A stretch of 64,000 nt of DNA from Syntrophorhabdaceae bacterium (lineage in GTDB: Bacteria > Desulfobacterota > Syntrophorhabdia > Syntrophorhabdales > Syntrophorhabdaceae): the NCBI GenBank assembly GCA_963665295.1, contig OY762209.1, positions 1,056,001 to 1,120,000 of the forward strand. The letters are read 5' to 3'. This document shows, piece by piece, positions 21,874 to 35,248 of the stretch. Both the position numbers and the translations under genes were made by a program. Position 1 is the stretch's first letter. The number at the start of each line of letters is the position of its first letter. The notes beneath the pieces are model-generated. The model did not search any database. It was not told where the DNA came from and was given only the letters and a program-made list of their open reading frames with translations.

Positions 21874-22107
21874 ATGGCGGACGAACTCCTTGAAGAGGAA
21901 AAGAAACTCCGGAGACTCAGGTTCATGGTCGATTTTGCCCTCGAATACATCAGGACCCAGCATATTTCCCACGACGAAGCCATCTCCGTGGTGGAGGGGG
22001 TAAGAAACCACGCACTGAAACTCTTCCCCGGAAAAGAAGAAACCTTCGACCTCATCTACATGTCCCGCTTCAAACGGCTCCTCAACGAAAAATTCCAGAG
22101 GGCGTAG
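21874..22107 (+). CDS. Small hypothetical protein
   Basis: MADELLEEEKKLRRLRFMVD...LFPGKEETFDLIY; native codon usage, continues the ileS-lspA operon. Confidence 0.7.
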   Translation: MADELLEEEKKLRRLRFMVDFALEYIRTQHISHDEAISVVEGVRNHALKLFPGKEETFDLIYMSRFKRLLNEKFQRA

Positions 22108-22261
22108 ATGTGCGTCCACGGCGGCCGGTAAACAGTTGAATTCCTGTAATATGGATTACCCACATGGATGACACGGTGATTTTAGGGAGAGCGTGCGTAA
22201 CGGGTGTCATGACTATCTCCGGTGGCAGCCGGTGTAAGGCCAATCGCAGGTTGGTTCCCGC

Positions 22262-25200
22262 CTAACCCATCGATTCCTGCTCATGTTTTTCTAGTCTCGC
22301 GAAAAGCTTATCAATATAGTTATCCCGGTCATCAGTCATAAAGAGCACATGCTGGTCTTCAAGCTCTTCCTGTGTTTTGCCCCATTTCAATTGCGGGTAT
22401 GGCGACCATGAAAGAATGAAGCTGTTGAGAATTACGTTCGGATCGTTCAACCGCTTCTCGATCTCCTTGATGCGCCTATGAAGCAGGACCTTCTCGCTGC
22501 CTGGCCCCTCTCCATGAAGAAGGCCATGAGGGTCAAGAAACGTTACGTATTGCTTGTCTCCGGTCAATACCCAAAAAATAAAGTCTGGGTAGAAACTCCC
22601 AGCCTCGAAAAAACCTACGCCTTTGCCACGGCTCATGTTTCTGAGAAGGAAAAGCTCTGTTTCGTTGTTTTCAAGGGCAGTTCTGTTTGTATTGCACCAG
22701 CCCCTCAGGTCCGTGACGAACTGATATTCACTCTCATTGAGCATTACCGGCAGAACTGTGATTTTGCCACCTTTAGGGACATGAAAGAGCGGTTGAAAAA
22801 GGTGTTTCCCGAAATTACAGGCATTGAGACCACCGGCCTGAAGAAGATCGTCCTTTCGCAACTCCAGGTCCCTCTTTATCTGATTGATTCCCTGAATGAC
22901 CTGGGCCTCGTCGCCATCGACGATAAGCTGATACAGTTCCTCAGTCGGCAGGTTGTCATCGTCCGGCGTCAGCTCGCGGAGTTCGAGGCGCGGTTCGATG
23001 TATTCACGCTTGCGATAGTTGTAATAATGCTCACAGTATCGCTTCAGGAGTTCGCCGGCGATCTGCTGGAGGAGCATGACGCCTTTGAGGTCCGCAGGAT
23101 TAAGCCAGGCTTCAGGCAGGTATAGGACATACCACGAAGAGTCTCCCAGTAAAGCACGGATCCCGCCTTTGGTAATGTTGAGGTTATACCAGCTTTTTTC
23201 ACGCTTGAACTGTTCCAACTCAAAGAACAGGGCGTCATAATCAAGTAATGCAAGGTGGCGTCCGCGAAAATATGCGTTGCTTTTCCCGGCTGCAGAACTC
23301 GTCCCTTTCGACTGCACGGCCTGAATTCGGGGATACCAATCAGCCGTAACCCTATTGGCAGTCAAGTAGCCGGGGACAACTCCCACGGTGGGGACAGGGC
23401 CGTCCTTCTTGAAGTCGTACTCCTTGCCGTCCGATGCCTTCCGTTTAGGCCGGAGTATTTTCAATCTTTTGCCAAAATCATAGGTCACATTCAGCGGAAC
23501 TGTAATGACGGTCCTGCGCTCGTTTCCGGGCAAGCCTTCCTCTCTTAAGAATTCCCGGAATCTTTCCATAAAATCAGCCTCGATCCCGAAAACGTTGAGC
23601 GTCTCGATCTCAGGGATGAAGACAGGTTGCACGGGCGCATGGGATCTGCCGCTCCGCTTCAGGCTCCACTCGTATCCTTTAAGGCGGACGCCCCGGCCGA
23701 ATAGTTGGATAATCTGTGTCCCTTCGCTTTTCCCCACATGCATGAGCCCCAGGGTGCTTACACGCCAGCAGTCCCAACCTTCCACAAACTTCTTGGACCC
23801 GATGAGAAGATTGACAGCAGACGAGGAATCTTTTACCGAGGCAAACGTGGCTTCCGTAAAATCGCTGTCTTCTACTTTCAACGGAATATGGTTTTGAGCT
23901 GCCACCTCTGCAACGTGGTCGCAGAGTCCTTTTGCGTCCCCAACATTTATCAGCCCGAAGGGAAGCTCCGCTCCACCTACGCGTAGCGCTACCTCTCCCG
24001 AATCCCCCTTGATCCTCTCAAGTTCAAGGGTTCCGCCTGCGTCGTTATTGAAGAGGCGCCGGAGGATGTCACGATAGATCTGCTCCATCGTTTCTCCGGC
24101 ATTCATCGATTCTGCGAGATAGGTAAAAGAACCGGCGAAAATGTCGTTGCCGTCCTTGTCGATGAGGCCGGTGTCCTGACCCTTTCCGGTGAGGACCTTA
24201 TCCATTCTTTTGCACGCTGCCTGCCGGTCATGAAGGAAATCAGCGATGAACTGGATTATCAGGGCCACATCTGTGGCCACAATCCTATCATCTTCCGAAC
24301 CACCCTTGGCCTTTGAGACAGTGCTCCCCACGAAAACCCAGAGGGGTTTTTCGATGTTGAAGGGTGCGAACTCCTTTGATTTGTCATCGTAAATCCGCAA
24401 TTGCTGATAGAACTTAAGGAGACAAGCCGTCAGATACATGGCCCGCATGTCGTCAAACGACTTCGGGAGGTTCAGTATCTGATAGTCCTTTCCAAAACCA
24501 TCCTCATAGAACCACCGGTAGGAATAATCAAAAATAATGGTTTTGGCATAGCTATTCTCGAAGTCCTTGTTGTTGGCCGCCGATACCGCCTGCTCGAAAG
24601 TGGCCGAATACTCGAAGGTGAATCCTTTTGCACAGAGGTCGGAACGACGGGTGAACCATGCGCCCTCCTCTTTTCCGCTCATGCCCCGGTGTCCTTCATC
24701 GACGAGAAGCAGGTTTTGATCGCCCAGGCTTCTGGTGGCAATCGTGTTGGGGCCTTCCTGATCGCCCAATTTTGTTATCTCGATAACATCGACCTGGTCG
24801 AATGCACCCTGTTTGGATAGATCAAGCTTTTTCACCGACCAGAATCCACTTTCCTGGAATTCGATAATGTGCTGCTCGCTGAGACGCTCATTAGGAGTAA
24901 GCAGGATAGCTCGGGAAAGAACCTTTTCCTCGCCATGTCTTTTGGCATAATGGCGGTATTGAAGCAGATTGACATGCATAAGCAGCGTCTTCCCGCTGCC
25001 CGTTGCGTTCTGAAGGCAGAGTTTGTTCAGGTCGTCTTCAGAATACGGCGGGATGTCGGCGTATTCAGGCCAGTGGTGATTGAACCGATTCACAAAGACA
25101 TTGAGGTCTTTTAGAAGCGCCTGGCGATTCCCCAGGAAACGGTCCAGATATATTTCCGTGAAGAGGAGCGTCAGCCATTGAAAATACTTCCACACAACAG

Positions 25201-25522
25201 GCCTGCGTCGCTTCTCGTTAATGGCCTGGGTATGGCGCACAATATTTTCTTCATAGAGCAGAATCTGTTCCTTGCTGATGGCCGCCAGATCATTCCAGAA
25301 GAGGGTGCTGTTTACCAGGGCGTGGTAGAAATGGTGGAGATTGTCGTGATCGAGACCTTCACGGCATTTCTTGAGCGGTTCTGCCAGATCGTGGAAGGGC
25401 CTGGTAGTCCCTGTGTATCTGTCGGCAAGAGGGTCAATACCGAAGAGGCCCATGAGCCACTGATTGAGGACAAGCTTGTTGCGGAAGGCGTGCTGTTTGG
25501 GACCCTTTGATTTCTTAGCCAT
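22262..25522 (-). CDS. Type III-like restriction enzyme Res subunit (SF2 helicase plus C-terminal nuclease)
   Basis: ATGSGKT, VDEGH, SATF, EGWD, QLFGRGVR, FYPDF...DPHG; downstream of mod. Confidence 0.85.
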   Translation of the reverse strand: MAKKSKGPKQHAFRNKLVLNQWLMGLFGIDPLADRYTGTTRPFHDLAEPLKKCREGLDHDNLHHFYHALVNSTLFWNDLAAISKEQILLYEENIVRHTQAINEKRRRPVVWKYFQWLTLLFTEIYLDRFLGNRQALLKDLNVFVNRFNHHWPEYADIPPYSEDDLNKLCLQNATGSGKTLLMHVNLLQYRHYAKRHGEEKVLSRAILLTPNERLSEQHIIEFQESGFWSVKKLDLSKQGAFDQVDVIEITKLGDQEGPNTIATRSLGDQNLLLVDEGHRGMSGKEEGAWFTRRSDLCAKGFTFEYSATFEQAVSAANNKDFENSYAKTIIFDYSYRWFYEDGFGKDYQILNLPKSFDDMRAMYLTACLLKFYQQLRIYDDKSKEFAPFNIEKPLWVFVGSTVSKAKGGSEDDRIVATDVALIIQFIADFLHDRQAACKRMDKVLTGKGQDTGLIDKDGNDIFAGSFTYLAESMNAGETMEQIYRDILRRLFNNDAGGTLELERIKGDSGEVALRVGGAELPFGLINVGDAKGLCDHVAEVAAQNHIPLKVEDSDFTEATFASVKDSSSAVNLLIGSKKFVEGWDCWRVSTLGLMHVGKSEGTQIIQLFGRGVRLKGYEWSLKRSGRSHAPVQPVFIPEIETLNVFGIEADFMERFREFLREEGLPGNERRTVITVPLNVTYDFGKRLKILRPKRKASDGKEYDFKKDGPVPTVGVVPGYLTANRVTADWYPRIQAVQSKGTSSAAGKSNAYFRGRHLALLDYDALFFELEQFKREKSWYNLNITKGGIRALLGDSSWYVLYLPEAWLNPADLKGVMLLQQIAGELLKRYCEHYYNYRKREYIEPRLELRELTPDDDNLPTEELYQLIVDGDEAQVIQGINQIKRDLELRKDDLLQAGGLNACNFGKHLFQPLFHVPKGGKITVLPVMLNESEYQFVTDLRGWCNTNRTALENNETELFLLRNMSRGKGVGFFEAGSFYPDFIFWVLTGDKQYVTFLDPHGLLHGEGPGSEKVLLHRRIKEIEKRLNDPNVILNSFILSWSPYPQLKWGKTQEELEDQHVLFMTDDRDNYIDKLFARLEKHEQESMG

Positions 25523-25584
25523 ATATCCCTTCCCGATATTCCAGGCAGTCAGGCTTGTTGCTCATGAGATAGTTACAAAGGTAT

Positions 25585-25618
25585 TTGTGTCTCACAGAGC
25601 CACTATTATGAGACACAA
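25585..25618. repeat. 10-bp perfect inverted repeat with 14-bp spacer between rhuM and res
   Basis: TTGTGTCTCA-N14-TGAGACACAA. Confidence 0.7.
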
Positions 25619-25644
25619 GGCGTTCCATAGCCACTCTCTTCTGT

Positions 25645-26697
25645 CTAATCACTATCTCGCCCCGACGTTTCTATTGCTTTTTCCATGCGTCTCAGTTCCT
25701 CATCATCAGAAAGGGCTTCAGTTTCAGCCTCAGTGGCGAGGCGATGGTGGTTGAATACCTCGTATTGCTTGAGCGCCAGCGTGTCGGCAACCTCCTTGGA
25801 AACCTTTCCTGCGTTTTCAAGGATCTCTCGTTCGTTGAAACGCAAGAAGGCATTCAGTTTTTCGCGCCAATCCCTCATAAAAATCTGTCTATGCCGTTTC
25901 GCCTGGTCTTCAGCATAGTCCAGATACATACTTACAATGCGGTTGAGTCCGGCAAGCTCCTCTTCGTTCAGGTAGTTTTTTGCAATCGTCACATCGCCCT
26001 TACGAACCTTCGTTCCTTTCCATGATGTAAGGCCCATGTTGGGCTTTTTTGCATCGGCCCGCCCGGCAATCAATTCCGCTGCCGTCTTACCGGAAATGGC
26101 GAAGTGCAGTTTGTTCTGGACGATCCGGAAGAACGTCAATGTCTCCTCTGCTTTAGGATTGTAGTCAACGGCCAGTTTGTAGATATCACGAATTTTCTGG
26201 TAGAATCGCTTTTCGCTGGATCGGATATCCCGAATCCGCTCCAGCATCTCGTCGAAGTAATCAGAACCGATGTTCGTGCCCGCCTTGAGACGGTCATCGT
26301 CCATGGTGAAGCCCTTTACGAGGTACTCGTTTAGACGTTCCGTAGCCCAGATGCGGAACTGAGTGCCACGATATGACTTTACCCGGTACCCTACCGCAAT
26401 AATGGCCTCCAGATTGTAGTGCCGGACGGAGCGTTGGATTTGTCTGCCGCCTTCCTGACGAACTATTAAGTAATCCTTAATAGTTGCCTTTTCCGAAACC
26501 TCACCCTCATCGTAAATATTCTTCAGGTGAATGTTGATATTGGGAACGGTTGTTTGAAACAAGTCCGCCATTGCCGCCTGGGTCAGCCAAACGGTTTGGC
26601 CCTCTATCCGTATTTCGATACGAGTTTTTCCATCTTCTGTCTGATAGAGCAAGAATTGACTGTTTTCCGGGAGGCCGGGTGTATTATTCTTTGCCAT
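25645..26697 (-). CDS. RhuM-family DNA-binding protein
   Basis: TVWLTQ, HYNLEAIIAVGYRVKS, FRIWAT, IRDIRSSEKRFY, AKNYL. Confidence 0.88.
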   Translation of the reverse strand: MAKNNTPGLPENSQFLLYQTEDGKTRIEIRIEGQTVWLTQAAMADLFQTTVPNINIHLKNIYDEGEVSEKATIKDYLIVRQEGGRQIQRSVRHYNLEAIIAVGYRVKSYRGTQFRIWATERLNEYLVKGFTMDDDRLKAGTNIGSDYFDEMLERIRDIRSSEKRFYQKIRDIYKLAVDYNPKAEETLTFFRIVQNKLHFAISGKTAAELIAGRADAKKPNMGLTSWKGTKVRKGDVTIAKNYLNEEELAGLNRIVSMYLDYAEDQAKRHRQIFMRDWREKLNAFLRFNEREILENAGKVSKEVADTLALKQYEVFNHHRLATEAETEALSDDEELRRMEKAIETSGRDSD

Positions 26698-26698
26698 A

Positions 26699-29600
26699 TT
26701 ATACCCCCTCCGTATCCCACATTCTTTTCATAAACTCTTCTTCGATGAGACGGACCTTCCATGTGTCGCCTTCTTTCAGAAGATTGGGCAGGTTGTTGCT
26801 CCCATTGACGTAAATTGTATCGAACTCAAAATCACGAGTACTGATACGATTCTTCTCGAACCACTCGTCGAGCATGAGGTTATCCGTCTCCGGATCACCG
26901 GTCAGTCTTCGCCAGACGATGAGCACCTTTTCCTTTTGGCCGTTGTTTGGGTTTTGCCGGTCTTTCGGGACCCAGCCTTCAACCTTGCGGAACCACCAGC
27001 GACAATGATCAGGTGACAATGAACAATGAGCAGGTGACAATGAACAATGAGCAGGTGACAATGAACAATGAGCAGGTGACAATGAACAATGAGCAGGTGA
27101 CAATGAACAATGAGCAGGTGACAATGAACAATGATCAGGTGACAATGAACAATGATCAGGTGACAATGAACAATGATCAGGGTCATCTTTTGGTTCAATT
27201 TGTTCATTGTTCATTGATAATTGTTCATTGACCTTCCGCATCTTGCCGTCAATGACAAGCTTCGTATGCTGATCGGTGGGAAGCTCCGGATCGGAAAGTC
27301 GCATGAAGCCTGCCGTAAAGACCTGGGGTTCGGCAATGTGGATCACTCTGAGGCCAATAAGGTAATTGAAGGTTTCGAGGAGGTCCACGTTGCGGTTCAC
27401 GTATTCGTCGCTTCCCGGCTTCTTCACTTTCAAAGTATAGGCGGTGGGATCGGAAAAAGCATCGATATTGAGAAGCGATTGACTCCCCTTTGTCTCCACA
27501 TCAAGGAGATAGTGGAGCATGAAATCCTCTTCGAGGGAAGCATTGGCCGCCACCGCCTTATCGCGGGTCGGGTTAACGTCAAAACGGAGGTTGTTCAGAG
27601 TGTCTTCGTAGGATTCGAGGCGGAGGTACTTGAAGCAGTGGGAGATACCCGTGTGACGGGCTGTGGGCTTGCCGTCTTTCCAGTCAGCGGAATAGACCAC
27701 CTTCACTATTCGAGGTTTGAGCACGGTGTCGAAATAGTCACCCATTTCAACGAGGATATACTTCCGGTTACCGCTATCTCCTCGATTGAGGTTAATGACG
27801 GCGTGAGCGGTAGTGCCAGACCCGGCAAAGTAGTCGAGAACGATACCATCATATTCTTCTTTCAGTCCACACACCGCGAGGCAATCCTCAACGGCATATA
27901 ACGATTTTGGGTACGAGAACACATTGTAGGTGTCAAAATATTGTTTCAGTAAGCCAGTTCCATGTTCTGTAGCCGAGTACTTCGCGTCTACCCAGGTCGT
28001 GAGTGGGAGAACCCCATCTTTGCCTGGTCTGAATCGGTAGTACACGGTAATGGAGTCTCCTTGGACTTTTGCCCGGTAATCTTTCGAAGAGTTCGTTATG
28101 TTCTCAGGTTTTCCGCGCCACCTTCGCTCAGCACCTTGTTCGTCAATTGGGTAGACCACGATTTCGTCGGCCTTCGGTTGCTCCGTAATATCCCACGTCC
28201 TGCAGTCGTCATTCCAATTCATTTTCGGTATACGAACGCTTTCTCCGCAAATATATAGGGGATAATAAAGTGAAGGCCGGTCTTTGCGTTCCGAATTGGA
28301 GCCTCGCTTTCTGAACAACTCCCACATATAAGCCCGGCCTTTTTCGTCGTTGTGTCTATAACGAGCGGCTTGTTTTTCCGATCTTGGAAGCTTAGAGATG
28401 GTTGCGGCGGGAGTATTCTTCATGAAGATGGCATATTCATGGGACTGTGCAAATCCCGAAGGAACAGGGCGTCCCGATGGGTTCATCCTTATTGTTACCG
28501 TGCCTGCGTGGCAATTCTGGTCGAACTCCTGTTCCAAAAGGAAATGAAGTTCCTTCTGTTGGTAATCATCGATTGTTGCACAGAGTATCCCACTGACCGG
28601 CAAAAGAAGTTTTGATATGTGAACTCGGTCAGCAAGCAGTGATATCCAGGAAGAACTTCGGTATCCATTCTTGTAGCTAATCGGTCCAGCATCTGTGTTG
28701 TATGGGGGGTCGATATATATGGACCTTATCCTTTCTTTATATCGCTCCCTTAACTGGTTCAGGGCCTGGAAATTCTCCGAATGAATCAGCAAGCCATCGC
28801 ACTGTTCGTCCAATCCTTCAATTGATGAAACAAGCCGCTCCTTAAACTTATCATCAAAAAATTGAGTATCGAGCACCAGTTTATTGTGGGCTTTCAGAAA
28901 AGCCAACGTGAGAGGTCTGGAGTAGCCCGGCGTATCGGGGGCAGCTAAATCACCGCGCACCATCTCGATCCCGTCAATCGCAAAGAGTTTCACCCACTCC
29001 TCGCGTTGAGCCTCATTGGCGGCTATCTCCGGATAGAGGTCTTCGGGTATCCGATCAAGGGTGATGCAGTAATTAGTCTCCACAACGAACTTCTTCTTTA
29101 GCCAGAGCTTCTTCTGGAAGTTTTCGAGCTGCGCGAGAAAGTCGATCAGTTTTCCGGCTATTCTCCGGAGGACCTTGATTTTTGCCAGATAGCTTTCTAC
29201 TGCCGGGGCTTCGGCGTTCTCAATGTCATCGAGGCGCATCACCTCGTTTTTGATATAGAAGTCCAGCTCCCGGCGGAGGAAAGCGCCCAGGTCTTTGTGG
29301 ATGAAGTAATCCATGGTGTTCCGTGCCGTATACTGGTTCACATATTTTGCCAGGAGGGGCCGTTTCTTGTCGTTCTCCGTGGGGGCAGGGATGCTGAAAA
29401 GGCGTAAATAGGCCGCCAGACTCGCCATGTCGCCGGCCATTGCCTTCAGCGACGAAAGAATGGCCGCCACGGCCTCGACATTTCTCTTGTCTTTCCATGT
29501 ACCTTCCTGCCCTGATTTTTCCGGGTCGGGACGGTACTCAAAGTTGACCACCATCTCACCCGCATCATTCAATTCAACAGGCTTCTCCTTGTGAATAATG

Positions 29601-30325
29601 AAGTAACGCTTGGTTGCGTCACTGGCCTTAACATTGCCGTGTTCCCCTTCTGTTGCCTCGACGATACGGAAGTTCACCCTGAATCCATCAGGAATGTTCT
29701 CCTCGGCGGCACCAAAGAGACCGCCCATTCCAGGGTCCTTTTCTTTCGTGTTCTTTTGTATCTGGGCTTGTGCAGCTGACGAAAGATCGAAGGTGAAATT
29801 GGAAAAATACTCCGTGGTCTTAATATAGTACTGGTCAGCGTTGGCCCAGTGGAGCTTGACTTCTTCCCCGCTGTAAGGCACAGCAAAAGGCGCGGAACGT
29901 CCTTCTGTCTCACGGGCATAGTACCGACGGGAAATAAAATCGCCGTCGTCATAATAGCGCTCAAAGAAGCGGTAAAGGTGGTCGTAAATGTCCGCCTCGG
30001 CAGCGACGGAACCCGCGACTGCCTCGTATCGCCCCCGAACTTCTTTCACTGCGTCGGTCTGCTCGGGATCGGGGGCTCCAAACTTTCTTGCCGTCTCTAT
30101 GGCGTCATCTATTTTTGCCTGCAGTGTTGTTTTCTGTATCTGGTCAACTTCTCCGAAGGCATCCTCCACGATTTTAAGAAGGTCCTTTTCAATAAACTCC
30201 GAAACCTGTCGGGCCTTGGCATGCATAATCCGGTAGAAACCGAAATCGAGGTCAGGCTGGTCAAGCTGAAAAAGCTCCTTCAGTTTCTTAAGGAGACGGG
30301 TCCGAAGTTGTTCTGTGGTGGGCAT
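26699..30325 (-). CDS. Type III-like adenine DNA methyltransferase (Mod) with in-frame repeat insertion near the C-terminus
   Basis: IYIDPPYN followed by DYFAGSGTT (beta-class order); ATG at 30325 with GGAG 9 nt upstream. Confidence 0.9.
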   Translation of the reverse strand: MPTTEQLRTRLLKKLKELFQLDQPDLDFGFYRIMHAKARQVSEFIEKDLLKIVEDAFGEVDQIQKTTLQAKIDDAIETARKFGAPDPEQTDAVKEVRGRYEAVAGSVAAEADIYDHLYRFFERYYDDGDFISRRYYARETEGRSAPFAVPYSGEEVKLHWANADQYYIKTTEYFSNFTFDLSSAAQAQIQKNTKEKDPGMGGLFGAAEENIPDGFRVNFRIVEATEGEHGNVKASDATKRYFIIHKEKPVELNDAGEMVVNFEYRPDPEKSGQEGTWKDKRNVEAVAAILSSLKAMAGDMASLAAYLRLFSIPAPTENDKKRPLLAKYVNQYTARNTMDYFIHKDLGAFLRRELDFYIKNEVMRLDDIENAEAPAVESYLAKIKVLRRIAGKLIDFLAQLENFQKKLWLKKKFVVETNYCITLDRIPEDLYPEIAANEAQREEWVKLFAIDGIEMVRGDLAAPDTPGYSRPLTLAFLKAHNKLVLDTQFFDDKFKERLVSSIEGLDEQCDGLLIHSENFQALNQLRERYKERIRSIYIDPPYNTDAGPISYKNGYRSSSWISLLADRVHISKLLLPVSGILCATIDDYQQKELHFLLEQEFDQNCHAGTVTIRMNPSGRPVPSGFAQSHEYAIFMKNTPAATISKLPRSEKQAARYRHNDEKGRAYMWELFRKRGSNSERKDRPSLYYPLYICGESVRIPKMNWNDDCRTWDITEQPKADEIVVYPIDEQGAERRWRGKPENITNSSKDYRAKVQGDSITVYYRFRPGKDGVLPLTTWVDAKYSATEHGTGLLKQYFDTYNVFSYPKSLYAVEDCLAVCGLKEEYDGIVLDYFAGSGTTAHAVINLNRGDSGNRKYILVEMGDYFDTVLKPRIVKVVYSADWKDGKPTARHTGISHCFKYLRLESYEDTLNNLRFDVNPTRDKAVAANASLEEDFMLHYLLDVETKGSQSLLNIDAFSDPTAYTLKVKKPGSDEYVNRNVDLLETFNYLIGLRVIHIAEPQVFTAGFMRLSDPELPTDQHTKLVIDGKMRKVNEQLSMNNEQIEPKDDPDHCSLSPDHCSLSPDHCSLSPAHCSLSPAHCSLSPAHCSLSPAHCSLSPAHCSLSPDHCRWWFRKVEGWVPKDRQNPNNGQKEKVLIVWRRLTGDPETDNLMLDEWFEKNRISTRDFEFDTIYVNGSNNLPNLLKEGDTWKVRLIEEEFMKRMWDTEGV
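27003..27231. repeat. Heptad-repeat hairpin inside mod: 8 full 21-bp units plus partial, short loop, 4 inverted heptads
   Basis: CAATGA(T/G)CAGGTGACAATGAA starting 27003, 27024 ... 27150, partial at 27171; inverted arm TGTTCATTGTTCATTGATAATTGTTCATTGA 27201-27231; encodes (D/A)HCSLSP x8. Confidence 0.95.
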
Positions 30326-30330
30326 TTTTT

Positions 30331-30644
30331 CAATCTCCAATCATCAATGATCAATGAACACTTCTCTTGCGCGAGCACTCTCATGCGCCCGTTTCGGTTT
30401 GTCCATTGTCAATTGTTTACTGTCCATTGTCCCTTGTCAATCTCCAATCATCAATGATCAATGAACACTTCTCTTGCGCGAGCACTCTCATGCGCCCGTT
30501 TCGGTTTGTCCATTGTCAATTGTTTACTGTCCATTGTCCCTTGTCAATCTCCAATCATCAATGATCAATGAACACTTCTCTTGCGCGAGCACTCTCATGC
30601 GCCCGTTTCGGTTTGTCCATTGTCAATTGTTTACTGTTCATTGT
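30331..30644. repeat. Three tandem ~107-bp units, each with inverted heptad arms around an identical core
   Basis: Units start 30331, 30438, 30545 (CAATCTCCAATCATCAATGATCAATGAACAC...GTCCATTGTCAATTGTTTACTGTCCATTGT); third copy slightly truncated. Confidence 0.95.
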
Positions 30645-31049
30645 CTTGCTTATTCTCGTCTTCTTCAAAATAGCAAAAAGGATGGCAGCCACCTCATCCA
30701 CACAGGGAAAAATACTCTCAAAAGACTTGGCGTCCAGGTATCCGGTATCTTTGAGCAAATTCAGCCAATATTTCGTCTCTTGCGCCTCCTTGTATGCGAT
30801 AGAAACCTTGGCCGAAAGATCGGCTTCGGAAATAGCTCCTTTCGCCTCGGCCAGATTTGCCCCAATCGAGGTTCCGCTTTTGAGCAATTGTCTCGACAGC
30901 ACAAACTCACGTTTCTGTTCTGTTAACTGCTTGTAAATATGGACAATGCGAATAGCCAGTGCGTAGGATTTCTCATACGCAGGATTAGGTTTGCTCATTG
31001 TCATCTGTCCATTGCTCATTGTCATCTGCCCATTGTCCATTGTCCTCAT
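30558..31049 (-). CDS. Four-helix-bundle protein (23S rRNA intervening-sequence protein / bAvd-like family)
   Basis: KSYALAIRIV...LSRQLLKSGTSIGANLAEA...SIAYKEAQETKYWLNLL; ATG at 31049 overlaps SNF2 stop, core may start at 30998. Confidence 0.88.
   Translation of the reverse strand: MRTMDNGQMTMSNGQMTMSKPNPAYEKSYALAIRIVHIYKQLTEQKREFVLSRQLLKSGTSIGANLAEAKGAISEADLSAKVSIAYKEAQETKYWLNLLKDTGYLDAKSFESIFPCVDEVAAILFAILKKTRISKTMNSKQLTMDKPKRAHESARAREVFIDH
30992..31049 (-). repeat. Heptad array at the 5' end of the four-helix-bundle gene
   Basis: Minus strand CAATGGA CAATGGG CAGATGA CAATGAG CAATGGA CAGATGA CAATGAG. Confidence 0.9.
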
Positions 31050-33937
31050 ACCACTCTCCACCGGATCGTAAAGACCGGTGTGATCGTTGTTCTTTGCTGC
31101 ATGCGTTTCACAAGCTTCTCAACAAGCTGGTCTCTTTTCGCGGTAATCTCATCTTCCATGTCAAATATCTTTTCTCGCAATGTTCGTTTTCTGCGTTCAA
31201 GCTTGACAATCTCCTCCTGAATTCCATGTTGCTCCTCCATGGTCGATGCCTGACGGCTTCTTCGCTGGAGATCACGGACTTGGCGTTTGACATCATCGAG
31301 TTCTTTCTGTGCGGCCATTTCCATGTCTTCAGCCCATTTATCAAGTTGCTGACAAGCTTCGTTAAAGTGCCGGTTGTTTTCTTCGAGATTACGGGCAATG
31401 GTTGCCTCTGCATATTGTTGGCTGTCGGCGTTTAGACGATTATCGATAGCCACAGGAAGGGTGTCTGCTGGAACGGCTTGACCGCTACAACTAAAGAGTT
31501 TTTCGCAGGTCTCTTGGTCGACGTTATTGCCCACATCATCAACGGCCGTAAAAAGCAGGAATTCTTCGCTGTCGAAGGAGTCTATCCGTAAATGACGGAG
31601 GATAAGCCAGCCCGAGTTTCCTTTGAGCCCTTCCACCATGGAAATTTTTGTCGGATGGTTACTTATGTCGAATTTGATCTCCTTCAAGGGGCATTCATAT
31701 TCGGTGCCCCTCGCGATAACGTGCTCGCCAAGGGGATGGCCCAGACGGTACAGGTAGTCACCGGGTATATTTTCCCGGTTCTTGGATATGAGATGATAAC
31801 GTCCCGGCGAAGCCCCGGCAACAGGTGAAGAATTAAGTATAAATGAAAGGTCGGCATCATCGAACAAAGCGTACTCTGACAGTGTGTGTTTTGTGAGACT
31901 CCAGAAAAGACGGCCAATGCGGTCAAGCTTCTCCTGTGTGCCCGATATGTTTACCTTCAGCCGGGTATGCACATCTTCATCGAAGTTCTCCATGAGAAGC
32001 CTTCGCGTATCCCGCATACGTGTCTGTATCTGATCGTCAAGTTCCGCCTGCAATTTTTCAAAGGCGGAGCGAATCTCCTCTTCAGTGCGACACTGCTGAT
32101 AGATATCGAGGACACGGTGTTCAAAATCGACGCCGGACTCGATGGAACCGAGTACATCGTCGGAGACGCCGAAGACGCCGGTAAAGAGATTAAATTTCTG
32201 GTCCAGTAATTCGTAAACCCGGCGGTCAGCTTCATTACGTTCGTTGAGAAAATTGATGACCACCACGTCATGCTTCTGACCATACCTGTGACACCGTCCA
32301 ATGCGTTGCTCAATTCTCTGAGGGTTCCAGGGTAGGTCGAAGTTGATGACGGCGGAGCAGAACTGGAGGTTGAGTCCCTCTGCTCCGGCCTCTGTGGCGA
32401 TGAGAATTTGCGCGTCTGATCGAAATCGATCAATGATGGCGGCGCGCAGATCAATCTGCCTTGAATTACTGGCGCGGCCGGTGTTTCGATTGGCAGCAAA
32501 CCATTCCTGATATATCTGCCCCGAGGCATCATCTTTGTTGGTGCCATTGAAAGTGAGCACCCGACCGGCATATCCGTTACCCTCCAGAAAGTCTTTCAGC
32601 CACGACTGAGTGCGCCTGGATTCAGTAAAGATAACAACTTTCTGCGCCGCACCCATCTCCTCCATTCTCGCAAACCCGATCTCAAGGGCCGTCAGAAGGG
32701 CCTTTGTTTTCGTATCTATGCCGATACTTCCGGCCCATTGGATGTAATGTTCAAGTTCGCGGATCTCCTCAATAAGCTTATCCACGTCGATCTTCTGCTT
32801 CGCGCCTTCAGAGGTCACCCCGGCAGGGACATTGCCCACATCAACAATCTCATCTTCTTCATCCTCAAGAAGCTCATCGAGAAGGTCATCGTCCATCTCT
32901 TCGCCGGAAAGGAGGGTATCCTCGGCGTTCAGGTTGGCCTTTGTTTCTTCATGGAGTTTAAGGAGGCGGTCCCGCATGATCTCAAGTGTACCGGCGACTG
33001 CGTGAGGAGATGAAGCAAGAACCTTTCGGACAAGGAGAATAAGGAGGTGCTTCTGCCCCGAGGGTAGGGCATAGGTTTCATCCCGTTTCAAATAAGCCGA
33101 GACTGCCTCATAAAGATTGTGCTCCTGCTCCGTTGGCCTAAAAGGTCGGGTAATGAGCTTGCGTTCCGTGAAGGGTATAAATTCGACAACCTGGCTACGC
33201 AAAGTACGTCGGCAAAAGGTCGCGAGTCGATCCCGTAATCCCGGAAGATCACCGCCATAGTTGAGATATTGACTTCGGAAAGCTGCAAGGTCACCGAAAA
33301 GGCGTTCATCGATAAGGGTTGAAAGCCCGTAGAGTTCAAGAAGAGAGTTTTGGAGGGGTGTGGCGGTGAGAAGAAGTTTCTTCCTGTCTTCCGTGGTAAA
33401 TCGTATTTTTTGACCGATCTGGTTGCTTTGGCGATAGGAATTACGGAGCTTGTGGGCCTCATCAATCACGACAAGGTCCCACGGGATCACTTTGATCTCT
33501 TCAGCCTTGCTTGCGGCGTAATGCATTGAGCAGACAATGACCCCCTCGCTGTCAAAGGGGTCGCCATTTCCGTTCTTCTGTCGGTCCCGGAACGTTTTTG
33601 CATCAAGAACAAAGGACGGTAAGTTGAACTTATCCGAAAGCTCCAGCGCCCACTGTTTGCGAAGGGATGCCGGGCAGATCACAAGGAGACGGCGACGCCT
33701 TTCGGCCCAGTACTGACAGAGCACAAGACCTGCTTCAATAGTCTTTCCAAGTCCAACTTCGTCCGCAAGAAGAACGCCTTTGGAAATGGGTGATCGGAGA
33801 GCGAAAAGGGCAGCCTCGATCTGATGAGGATTCAGGTCCACACAGGCATCGAATAAAGCACGGCCAAGGCGGTCAAGACCGCTGCCGCCGATGCGGCTCA
33901 GTTCATAGGCGTAATACTTGGCGTGGTAATTCGTCAT
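31046..33937 (-). CDS. SNF2-family helicase (RapA/DrmD-like)
   Basis: LADEVGLGKT, IDEAH, LTATP, EGLNLQ, DLPWNP, QRIGRCHR; C-terminal coiled coil. Confidence 0.9.
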   Translation of the reverse strand: MTNYHAKYYAYELSRIGGSGLDRLGRALFDACVDLNPHQIEAALFALRSPISKGVLLADEVGLGKTIEAGLVLCQYWAERRRRLLVICPASLRKQWALELSDKFNLPSFVLDAKTFRDRQKNGNGDPFDSEGVIVCSMHYAASKAEEIKVIPWDLVVIDEAHKLRNSYRQSNQIGQKIRFTTEDRKKLLLTATPLQNSLLELYGLSTLIDERLFGDLAAFRSQYLNYGGDLPGLRDRLATFCRRTLRSQVVEFIPFTERKLITRPFRPTEQEHNLYEAVSAYLKRDETYALPSGQKHLLILLVRKVLASSPHAVAGTLEIMRDRLLKLHEETKANLNAEDTLLSGEEMDDDLLDELLEDEEDEIVDVGNVPAGVTSEGAKQKIDVDKLIEEIRELEHYIQWAGSIGIDTKTKALLTALEIGFARMEEMGAAQKVVIFTESRRTQSWLKDFLEGNGYAGRVLTFNGTNKDDASGQIYQEWFAANRNTGRASNSRQIDLRAAIIDRFRSDAQILIATEAGAEGLNLQFCSAVINFDLPWNPQRIEQRIGRCHRYGQKHDVVVINFLNERNEADRRVYELLDQKFNLFTGVFGVSDDVLGSIESGVDFEHRVLDIYQQCRTEEEIRSAFEKLQAELDDQIQTRMRDTRRLLMENFDEDVHTRLKVNISGTQEKLDRIGRLFWSLTKHTLSEYALFDDADLSFILNSSPVAGASPGRYHLISKNRENIPGDYLYRLGHPLGEHVIARGTEYECPLKEIKFDISNHPTKISMVEGLKGNSGWLILRHLRIDSFDSEEFLLFTAVDDVGNNVDQETCEKLFSCSGQAVPADTLPVAIDNRLNADSQQYAEATIARNLEENNRHFNEACQQLDKWAEDMEMAAQKELDDVKRQVRDLQRRSRQASTMEEQHGIQEEIVKLERRKRTLREKIFDMEDEITAKRDQLVEKLVKRMQQRTTITPVFTIRWRVV

Positions 33938-34047
33938 TTGTTTACACCAACCTCACCAGCTTCGATCATTGTGCTATGTAATTGTTGAACACTTTCGAGA
34001 TAATCGGAATCATATCTCCGCACATCTCTCATGAGATGCGCGTTCTC

Positions 34048-34076
34048 AGTGTATCAAGTGTCTCGACCATTGTCAA
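34048..34076 (-). promoter_or_regulatory. Sigma70-type promoter of the defence operon
   Basis: TTGACA-N17-TACACT on minus strand. Confidence 0.65.
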
Positions 34077-34082
34077 AGATCG

Positions 34083-34280
34083 ATGGGGCAGCAGATAACC
34101 GATCTGCTGCCCCAGCAGGTTCCCCTTGCTGAACATATCCTCTGCCTACCGGGAATAGGAGCCGTGACCTGTGGGGTGTTTTTGGGAGAGTTGGGGAACC
34201 CTGACTACTTCAAGGACCCCAAAGGGACGGTCAAGTACCAGGGTATGATCCTAAAGAGAACGAATGGTCCAGAAGCGTAG
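34083..34280 (+). pseudogene. IS110-family transposase fragment
   Basis: LCLPGIGAVTCGVFLGELGNPDYF...KYQG resembles the IS110/IS116 HhH region; only ~65 codons remain. Confidence 0.6.
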
Positions 34281-34332
34281 AATTAAGGGGGATGCACATC
34301 CGGGAATGGCGCCGCCATTCCTTTTTCTACTT

Positions 34333-34500
34333 TCAGCTTGAACCTGTTGCGGTAGGAAATAACCACGACGGAAGGGGCTTCGTCTCTTTCGGGGCCGTGT
34401 TCCTGCTTTCGCAACTGGGACACTTCGGCTCCTTCGACTCATCTTCGTATACGCGGAAGGCGCGACTGCAGTCCTTGCACTCATATATTTTACCCGGCAT
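34333..34500 (-). CDS. FmdB-like zinc-ribbon small protein (55 aa; possible Sec readthrough to 34327)
   Basis: MPGKIYECKDCSRAFRVYEDESKEPKCPSCESRNT...TGSS-UGA; two CxxC; purine-rich RBS; below ORF-track length cutoff. Confidence 0.75.
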   Translation of the reverse strand: MPGKIYECKDCSRAFRVYEDESKEPKCPSCESRNTAPKETKPLPSWLFPTATGSS

Positions 34501-34579
34501 CTTCCTTTACCTCCCCGACCATAACTCCTATTATACTTCCTATTATACTACATTTACCGCCCCCTGCCACCGGGTCGCG

Positions 34580-35248
34580 TCACGGCGCAAACCGGAGGAT
34601 GCCGAAGTCTTGCGGGGCATGGAAGTTCCGCTCCCTCAAAGGGGACCACGAAGCCCAGTGGGGATGACTTGTTTTGTCGCCGCACTTATAGAGGTTGCCC
34701 CGCCATTCCCGGTCCTCAATATTTTCCCCATGGACGTGGAACAGGGCGAAAGGAATGGCGAACTCCAGCGACCATGTGACTTCATCTGCAATCTCATGCT
34801 CGATGACGGGTGGAAGGCTGCCATAGACCGCCACCTGCCGGCCTTCCACCGGGGAAAGGGGCGTTGCCCCCGCCACCCGTCCGTTGACCCTGGTCGGGTC
34901 CGTCACGCAGGAAGCGAGCAGGGTCCCGCCGCAGTTGAACTCGAAATTGAAGTAGCCTGTGCCGGGGCCCGGCTGCACAAAGACCTCGACACAGCTATCC
35001 TCGTAGACCGGCGCCTGAAAAGCGGAATGCACACTCCGCACATACCGGTCCCGAACCTGGAACAGGCCGTAGAGGCGATTGTCGTCGTACAGCAGCTTGC
35101 AGCGGACAAGGGGCCGGTGTGACGAGCTTTCGGGTCTGAAGCGATCGATGGAAAGAAACGGGATGCCGCTCCAGGCCGGTCCGTCCCAGAGCCCCCGTAG
35201 CTCCGGAGGTTGGGCAGTCCTTGGAATGGTGTGACAATAGTCGCTCAT
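34580..35248 (-). CDS. Carbohydrate-binding family 9-like protein
   Basis: VYEDSCVEVF, YFNFEFNCGG, WRGNLYKCGD, NFHAPQDFG. Confidence 0.7.
   Translation of the reverse strand: MSDYCHTIPRTAQPPELRGLWDGPAWSGIPFLSIDRFRPESSSHRPLVRCKLLYDDNRLYGLFQVRDRYVRSVHSAFQAPVYEDSCVEVFVQPGPGTGYFNFEFNCGGTLLASCVTDPTRVNGRVAGATPLSPVEGRQVAVYGSLPPVIEHEIADEVTWSLEFAIPFALFHVHGENIEDREWRGNLYKCGDKTSHPHWASWSPLRERNFHAPQDFGILRFAP

Follow-up and report, generated by a model that had tools for sequence, protein, structure and literature searches.

An in-frame heptad-repeat insert in a type III-like methyltransferase gene and its probable origin in the arms of a neighbouring four-helix-bundle cassette

How does a restriction-modification methyltransferase gene come to carry an array of short repeats inside its coding sequence, and what becomes of that array when the gene is expressed? 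The question arises in a 64,000-nt stretch of a Syntrophorhabdaceae genome (GenBank assembly GCA_963665295.1, contig OY762209.1, positions 1,056,001 to 1,120,000), which we call the window and whose first letter is position 1 of our coordinates. Its minus strand holds an operon in the order SNF2 helicase, four-helix-bundle gene, mod, rhuM-family gene and res. Mod (26699..30325, ATG at 30325) is a type III-like DNA methyltransferase of 1208 aa (PF01555; PADLOC MTase_III, E 1.5e-198) that matches the solved Mods 7dsu, 6k0w and 4zcf, the first of these aligned over residues 509-861. Downstream lie the RhuM-family gene (25645..26697; PADLOC PDC-S05) and a type III-like Res subunit (22262..25522; PF04851; PADLOC REase_III, E 5.5e-177). 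The Mod and Res profiles are those of a classical type III pair, to which the window adds the upstream SNF2 gene (31046..33937, the first gene of the operon core), DrmD-like at a score under the NCBIfam cut-off. In many related loci, too, an SNF2 helicase stands directly upstream of mod or its cassette, outside the classical pair.

The insert occupies 26999..27232, 234 nt or 78 codons (codons 1032-1109 of 1208, with 99 residues following), and takes the place of a five-codon Mod loop. In mod orientation the insert begins with four to five heptads that form the left arm (27200..27232), followed by an unpaired loop of about 18-20 nt (27182..27199) and then by an expanded right arm of complementary heptads (27002..27181), in which TRF reports a period of 21 nt (three heptads), 8.6 copies and 98% matches. 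This bears out what an earlier note, written from the sequence letters, had read there: four left heptads, a loop of roughly 20 nt and a complementary 21-mer array with no stop in the mod frame. The Mod frame indeed has no stop across the 78 codons, and the remaining two frames have 1 and 8. Two types of 21-nt unit, one base apart, follow each other as three of type one, five of type two and one of type one. Each unit also contains a weak promoter-like match (9/12) on the plus strand, antisense to mod (27013-27167), probably a by-product of the 21-nt period.

Such an array might be a product of assembly. Contigs from two runs in two studies, one of which may be the source sample, are identical to both insert flanks without a differing letter. 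The same contigs stop inside the array, ending at 27039 and restarting at 27152, as expected for a multi-copy unit. As far as it can be tested, the array is not an assembly artefact, which settles to that extent a doubt that the earlier note had raised.

The protein that the insert encodes is striking in composition, with 9 His and 9 Cys arranged as nine His-Cys pairs at a spacing of seven residues, and the earlier note offered a His/Cys loop as one reading. A metal-binding module kept by selection would give such a pattern; against it, the nearest alleles hold two pairs and most alleles none, and the other repeat types found at the same position encode neither residue. The His/Cys content is thus incidental, and we give a selected metal module very little credence.

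Where the insert sits became clear from Mod homologues, whose alignment revealed an empty site. A five-residue loop is present at this slot in most of them (138 of 203 distinct C-termini are at the modal length), and 78 of 116 homologues parsed from the best 120 of 1399 hits have no extra residue there; a relative of the same genus (G001) also has an empty slot. Modelling of an empty allele (mean pLDDT 72, and about 88 around the slot) places the slot in coil ahead of a strand; a model with the insert included was discarded at pLDDT 36. A fold search with the empty C-terminal domain gave a best Z of 5.4, with the EcoP15I Mod C-terminus at Z 4.0 (rmsd 3.3, 83 aligned). In two more distant Mods (L044 and L069), the entire subdomain containing the slot is missing. 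Relative to empty alleles, the insert replaces 15 native nt and leaves no visible target duplication, a trace that drift may have erased.

Related alleles place the insert in a graded series. The nearest ones (P0002-P0004, P0121 and P0123), two of which their sources assign to Syntrophorhabdus aromaticivorans, have this two-armed element with a single 21-mer, for +24 aa, and the window allele is longer than an empty one by 73 aa, that is 24 + 7x7, or seven more 21-nt units. Further alleles with the same word add 7, 15 or 21 residues, and several alleles at the slot are one-armed only. A DNA search for the insert in 96 genomes of the order returned matches to the flanks only, in 2 other genomes. 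We also noted many alleles with exactly +7 residues and eroded or different words (P0020, P0041, P0045, P0058, P0069, P0083, P0103, L005, L017 and L034), a pattern that suggests decay to a fixed 12-residue loop.

Across relatives, the reading frame is kept without exception. In every one of the 162 loci compared (80 genome loci, 80 metagenome loci, G001 and the window), the length across the slot is divisible by three; these loci are not independent of one another, and insert-bearing relatives are enriched among them because the queries contained the insert. The Mod frame is open through each of the 25 distinct inserts, compared with 14 and 3 for the other frames. Taken with the short loop of most homologues, this supports the suggestion that the element is inserted and tolerated as a loop.

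An alternative is that the insert acts as RNA. The earlier note called it a hairpin of about 230 bp and proposed removal or bypass at the RNA level; the 234-nt repeat is real, but only about 35 nt of it can pair at one time. Its 31-nt inverted arms are 81-84% complementary, giving terminal inverted repeats and a predicted stem-loop. A 106-nt core folds at -29.3 kcal/mol (z -3.1; none of 200 shuffles did as well), and the left arm can pair about equally with any of eight registers in the array (-25.2 seven times, -26.8 once). The remaining array folded alone gives z +1.0, and the whole 291 nt gives z -0.27. Avd, a protein of diversity-generating retroelements (DGRs), binds RNA. An RNase III-like cut, or binding by the four-helix-bundle protein, could tune the stability or translation of mod mRNA, and in the strongest form the insert would be excised and the message rejoined. 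The core stem favours this, as do the available accounts of ORF-carrying rRNA intervening sequences cut out by RNase III (PMC4990558) and of the resemblance of PF05635, the family of the four-helix-bundle protein, to Avd (PMC10053308). That resemblance stays a lead, since no reverse transcriptase lies near the operon: the RVT_1 matches are at 0.69 and 2.65 Mb, and the operon is at 1.08-1.09 Mb. Other findings weigh against an RNA-level role. The native codons are replaced rather than interrupted, so excision would leave the native loop missing; alleles with one arm have nothing to pair with; strict conservation of frame would be needless if the RNA were removed; and an Rfam search of 22000-35000 gave no match. 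We therefore consider an RNA-level element unlikely, and removal or bypass finds no support. Translational bypass in particular was rejected on the sequence itself, there being no stop to bypass.

A second alternative, which the earlier note framed as a new kind of contingency locus, would make the array a low-rate switch. Slippage by one heptad would shift the frame and remove the last 99 native residues, producing a reversible off state or a methylase-only state; by computation, loss of a heptad yields 1138 aa with a wrong tail, and gain yields 1042-1107 aa. Nine pairs of identical neighbouring heptads would permit such single-heptad changes, and a phase-variable E. coli mod with a 26-copy heptamer tract is on record in the survey of PMC5909438. 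Perfect 7-nt runs, however, reach just 2-2.4 copies here, under the threshold of three given in the accessible part of that survey. No out-of-frame allele occurs among the 162 loci, and the observed expansions are multiples of 21 nt. A contingency role is accordingly improbable, and the case for a new kind of such locus is weak.

If the insert is neither a switch nor an RNA device, where did it come from? A candidate source lies 3 kb away, a link that the earlier note did not draw. Between helicase and mod is a cassette (30330-31061) whose four-helix-bundle gene (30558..31061; minus strand, as are the features that follow) belongs to the 23S_rRNA_IVP family (TIGR02436, E 2.4e-27; PF05635, E 7.4e-26) and probably starts near 31000. 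An upstream heptad arm (30991..31044) begins at the helicase stop codon. At the other end, three tandem 107-nt units (30330..30645) each comprise the cassette's 3' hairpin (arm, loop and complementary arm) and the mod ribosome-binding site. Contig depths over this triplication are about 3x and 2x those of the flanks in two runs, and the 107-nt unit has stops in all three frames. We also observed that every unit has a short open frame ending just ahead of the ribosome-binding site. The triplication creates two sigma-70-like sites (10/12 matches, starts 30547 and 30440) that point towards mod, and it may influence how mod is expressed.

Insert and cassette share a heptad word that is rare elsewhere. 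Arm 9-mers occur at 218 per kb in the insert, 0.72 per kb genome-wide and 0-0.7 per kb in the other operon genes, and genome scans confine arrays of the word to this operon in the 5.5-Mb genome of the window (G000). That genome holds one clear and one weak PF05635/IVP match. The weak one (G000:C1:1170302-1170499) falls within a longer frame of about 195 aa with no obvious arms; separately, an isolated intergenic array of a different heptad word lies at G000:C1:660112-660157, with no IVP gene found beside it.

The pairing of IVP cassette and insert recurs in L002 and L105, and three loci (L001, L023 and L104) combine a PF13366 cassette with inserts made of the same cassette's arms. Among 26 distinct inserts, 11 of the 14 of 57 nt or more match a cluster at another place in their locus, and they do so to a degree that no more than 1 of 102 insert-free loci attains; the other 3 of the 14 lack such a match, and just 1 of 12 short inserts has one. 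Within one genome, L002 offers a control. It has six IVP matches, and its two operon cassettes and four outside cassettes carry six different words; its mod is covered over 149 and 241 nt by the two local words, compared with 18-73 nt by the four non-local cassettes. Arrays of the window's word lie only at this operon in that genome (7/7 pattern matches). Elsewhere in the L002 mod, at codons of about 280-420, a hairpin of about 90 nt is built of a second heptad word in roughly 3.5 in-frame repeats, and this word matches the arms of an IVP gene between rhuM and res.

Copying from the window's own present-day cassette is less direct. The longest exact match of the insert to the arms of its own operon is 11 nt, compared with 26 nt to those of L002 (left arm), and the four-helix-bundle protein is 80% identical to the product of the L002 gene at the same junction. 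This combination suggests that the insert probably goes back to an older form of that cassette lineage and is not a fresh copy.

These data also bear on a third alternative, in which the insert is a translated loop but was never copied in cis: the arms would have been acquired in a host with a genome-wide dispersed repeat, and cassette and insert would have travelled together since. The operon genes are 46-51% GC in a genome of 55%, which makes transfer plausible; the insert resembles the cassette arms of another genome more than those of its own operon; and no IVP gene was found in 3 of the 5 hosts with this insert type, whose genomes are incomplete. Host-level counts of IVP and GxxExxY genes (matches in 30/50 and 27/50 genomes, again incomplete) fail to separate insert-bearing from empty hosts. 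Set against this alternative, the word pattern is dispersed in none of the 25 other genomes searched, and the five other cassettes examined in the L002 genome differ in word while mod holds the two of its own operon. We regard co-travel without cis copying as possible but doubtful.

The slot itself behaves as a hotspot. At least four unrelated repeat types, assigned by eye from the sequences and not by an automatic rule, fill it, at scattered places in the Mod tree. In one tight clade, where the flanking DNA is 81-97% identical, some alleles are empty (L130, L135, L140, L144 and L149) and others differ in arm type (L023, L103 and L104; L102; L137; P0013 and P0029). A single clade for the twelve two-armed alleles that carry the window's word is rejected (p-AU 9e-60 on a quick tree of 56 of the 203 rows, with groups defined by sequence type after a first tree had been seen), which indicates repeated gain or else spread with loss by recombination. 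Further in-frame arm slots, of several types, are visible in relatives' Mods at alignment positions of about 280-300, 420-470 and 880-920, and single Mods can mix arm types (L001, L104 and P0117). As separate irregularities, the one-armed mod of L116 (1000-1200) and that of L117 are interrupted just upstream of the slot by an apparent insertion sequence end, and L177 (464-1341) has a duplication of about 200 nt in mod upstream of the slot that is probably an assembly error.

The helicase-mod junction is similarly varied. It holds an IVP cassette in L002 and L105 (and a broken one in L012), PF13366 in L009, L023, L036 and L065, with L001 also carrying PF13366 upstream of mod, and otherwise DUF559 (L010), a Y1 transposase (L029), remnants (L045, L108 and G001) or nothing. 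Of loci with a long junction, 6 of 17 carry an insert, versus 3 of 37 where the junction is short (Fisher p 0.02, on rows that are not independent). Three observations count against a simple link of cassette to insert: the slot is empty in 11 of the 17 long-junction loci, L010 pairs a DUF559 cassette with a heptad insert, and no enzyme for copying arms was identified. None of the 162 loci has a full-length cassette inside the slot.

On balance, we think it probable, from sequence comparison, that the insert is a gene-less copy of cassette arms, expanded by slippage and translated as a tolerated, disordered loop with Mod expression left on. The arms would have entered mod in cis, from a cassette at one of the operon's own junctions; the copying or repair involved would swap out a few bases without duplicating the target. 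Selection would retain only events in tolerant loops with an open frame, and alleles could then spread between mod genes by recombination while eroding to one-armed and +7-residue remnants. In the window, replication slippage would have added the seven extra 21-nt units; the 21-mer is the presumed unit of growth, being the longest perfect period and one that preserves the frame. The contrast between the 107-nt intergenic unit, which is stopped, and the 21-nt coding unit, which is open, is what selection for read-through would be expected to leave. The ribosome likely reads through the insert, giving a floppy protein loop, and the insert itself is probably close to neutral.

A wider scheme can be sketched more tentatively. 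Cassettes of several kinds (four-helix-bundle IVP, GxxExxY nuclease, DUF559 and Y1 transposase), each with a palindromic arm word of its own, may alternate at the junctions of restriction-modification operons, write arm hairpins in cis into fixed methyltransferase loops and overwrite their predecessors, with the arms serving as RNA or DNA binding sites of the cassette protein. We hold this to be speculative and rather unlikely in its full form. If true, Mod genes would preserve a history of past cassettes, and the orphan family PF05635 would read or copy bacterial heptamer repeats.

Whatever the mechanism, one operon here contains cargo gene, arms, a triplicated 3' hairpin and an in-frame copy, with a word found nowhere else in the genome. 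This inventory, together with empty, one-unit, expanded and different-word relatives, makes binding and copying assays concrete. The locus is a test case for the role of the large 23S_rRNA_IVP family outside rRNA and for the origin of bacterial heptamer arrays. The literature searched, mainly open papers without supplements, yielded no account of repeat arms on IVP or GxxExxY cassettes, nor of in-frame copies of these, and we see the locus as a good handle on an undescribed class of elements.

How does the insert compare with known systems? Like phase-variable type III mod genes, it is a tandem repeat tract within a mod ORF (PMC5909438), but its dominant unit of 21 nt keeps the frame. The available text of that survey covers units of 1-9 nt, describes frame-keeping tracts as rare and counts a simple sequence repeat from at least three perfect copies of a 3-9-nt unit in an ORF; by those measures the insert is not a phase-variable tract, in copy number or in unit length. 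A long repeat in mod does not by itself make a phasevarion. Diversity-generating retroelements have a reverse transcriptase beside an Avd-like gene, an arrangement absent here. Heptamer direct repeats in Beggiatoaceae, cyanobacteria and Bacteroidetes lie mostly just upstream of start codons, with some inside ORFs in a stop-free orientation and long arrays in some genomes, and no mechanism is evident in the accessible account (PMC4679880), in which the words "four helix" and "intervening" do not occur. As described there, those repeats are direct only and their in-ORF copies fall mainly at protein ends, unlike the two-armed hairpins in an internal loop seen here.

Closer in content are the intervening sequences of 23S rRNA, where, in the portion of PMC4990558 available, a small PF05635 four-helix-bundle ORF likewise sits within a hairpin-forming frame. 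That likeness belongs to the neighbouring cassette, whose PF05635 ORF lies inside paired arms, since the mod insert has no ORF of its own. Unlike the rRNA elements, the cassette occupies an mRNA operon junction, has heptad arms and is accompanied by a gene-less copy in coding sequence. Closest in form are the Rickettsia palindromic elements (RPEs) and other bacterial MITEs that have become part of genes in frame; for one enzyme with an RPE, translation and activity are reported in the text at hand (PMC2229807). The mod insert shares with them a palindromic repeat of non-coding origin lying in frame in a conserved gene. It is unlike them in being built of tandem heptads, confined to one operon rather than dispersed, and tied to a small cargo gene; it replaces host codons with no target duplication, and several unrelated repeat types share its slot. 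The insert thus resembles an RPE-type in-frame palindrome but stands outside that group in dispersal and target duplication. To these systems the locus adds a series of alleles from one to eight units, a test of polyphyly and a within-genome control for cis matching.
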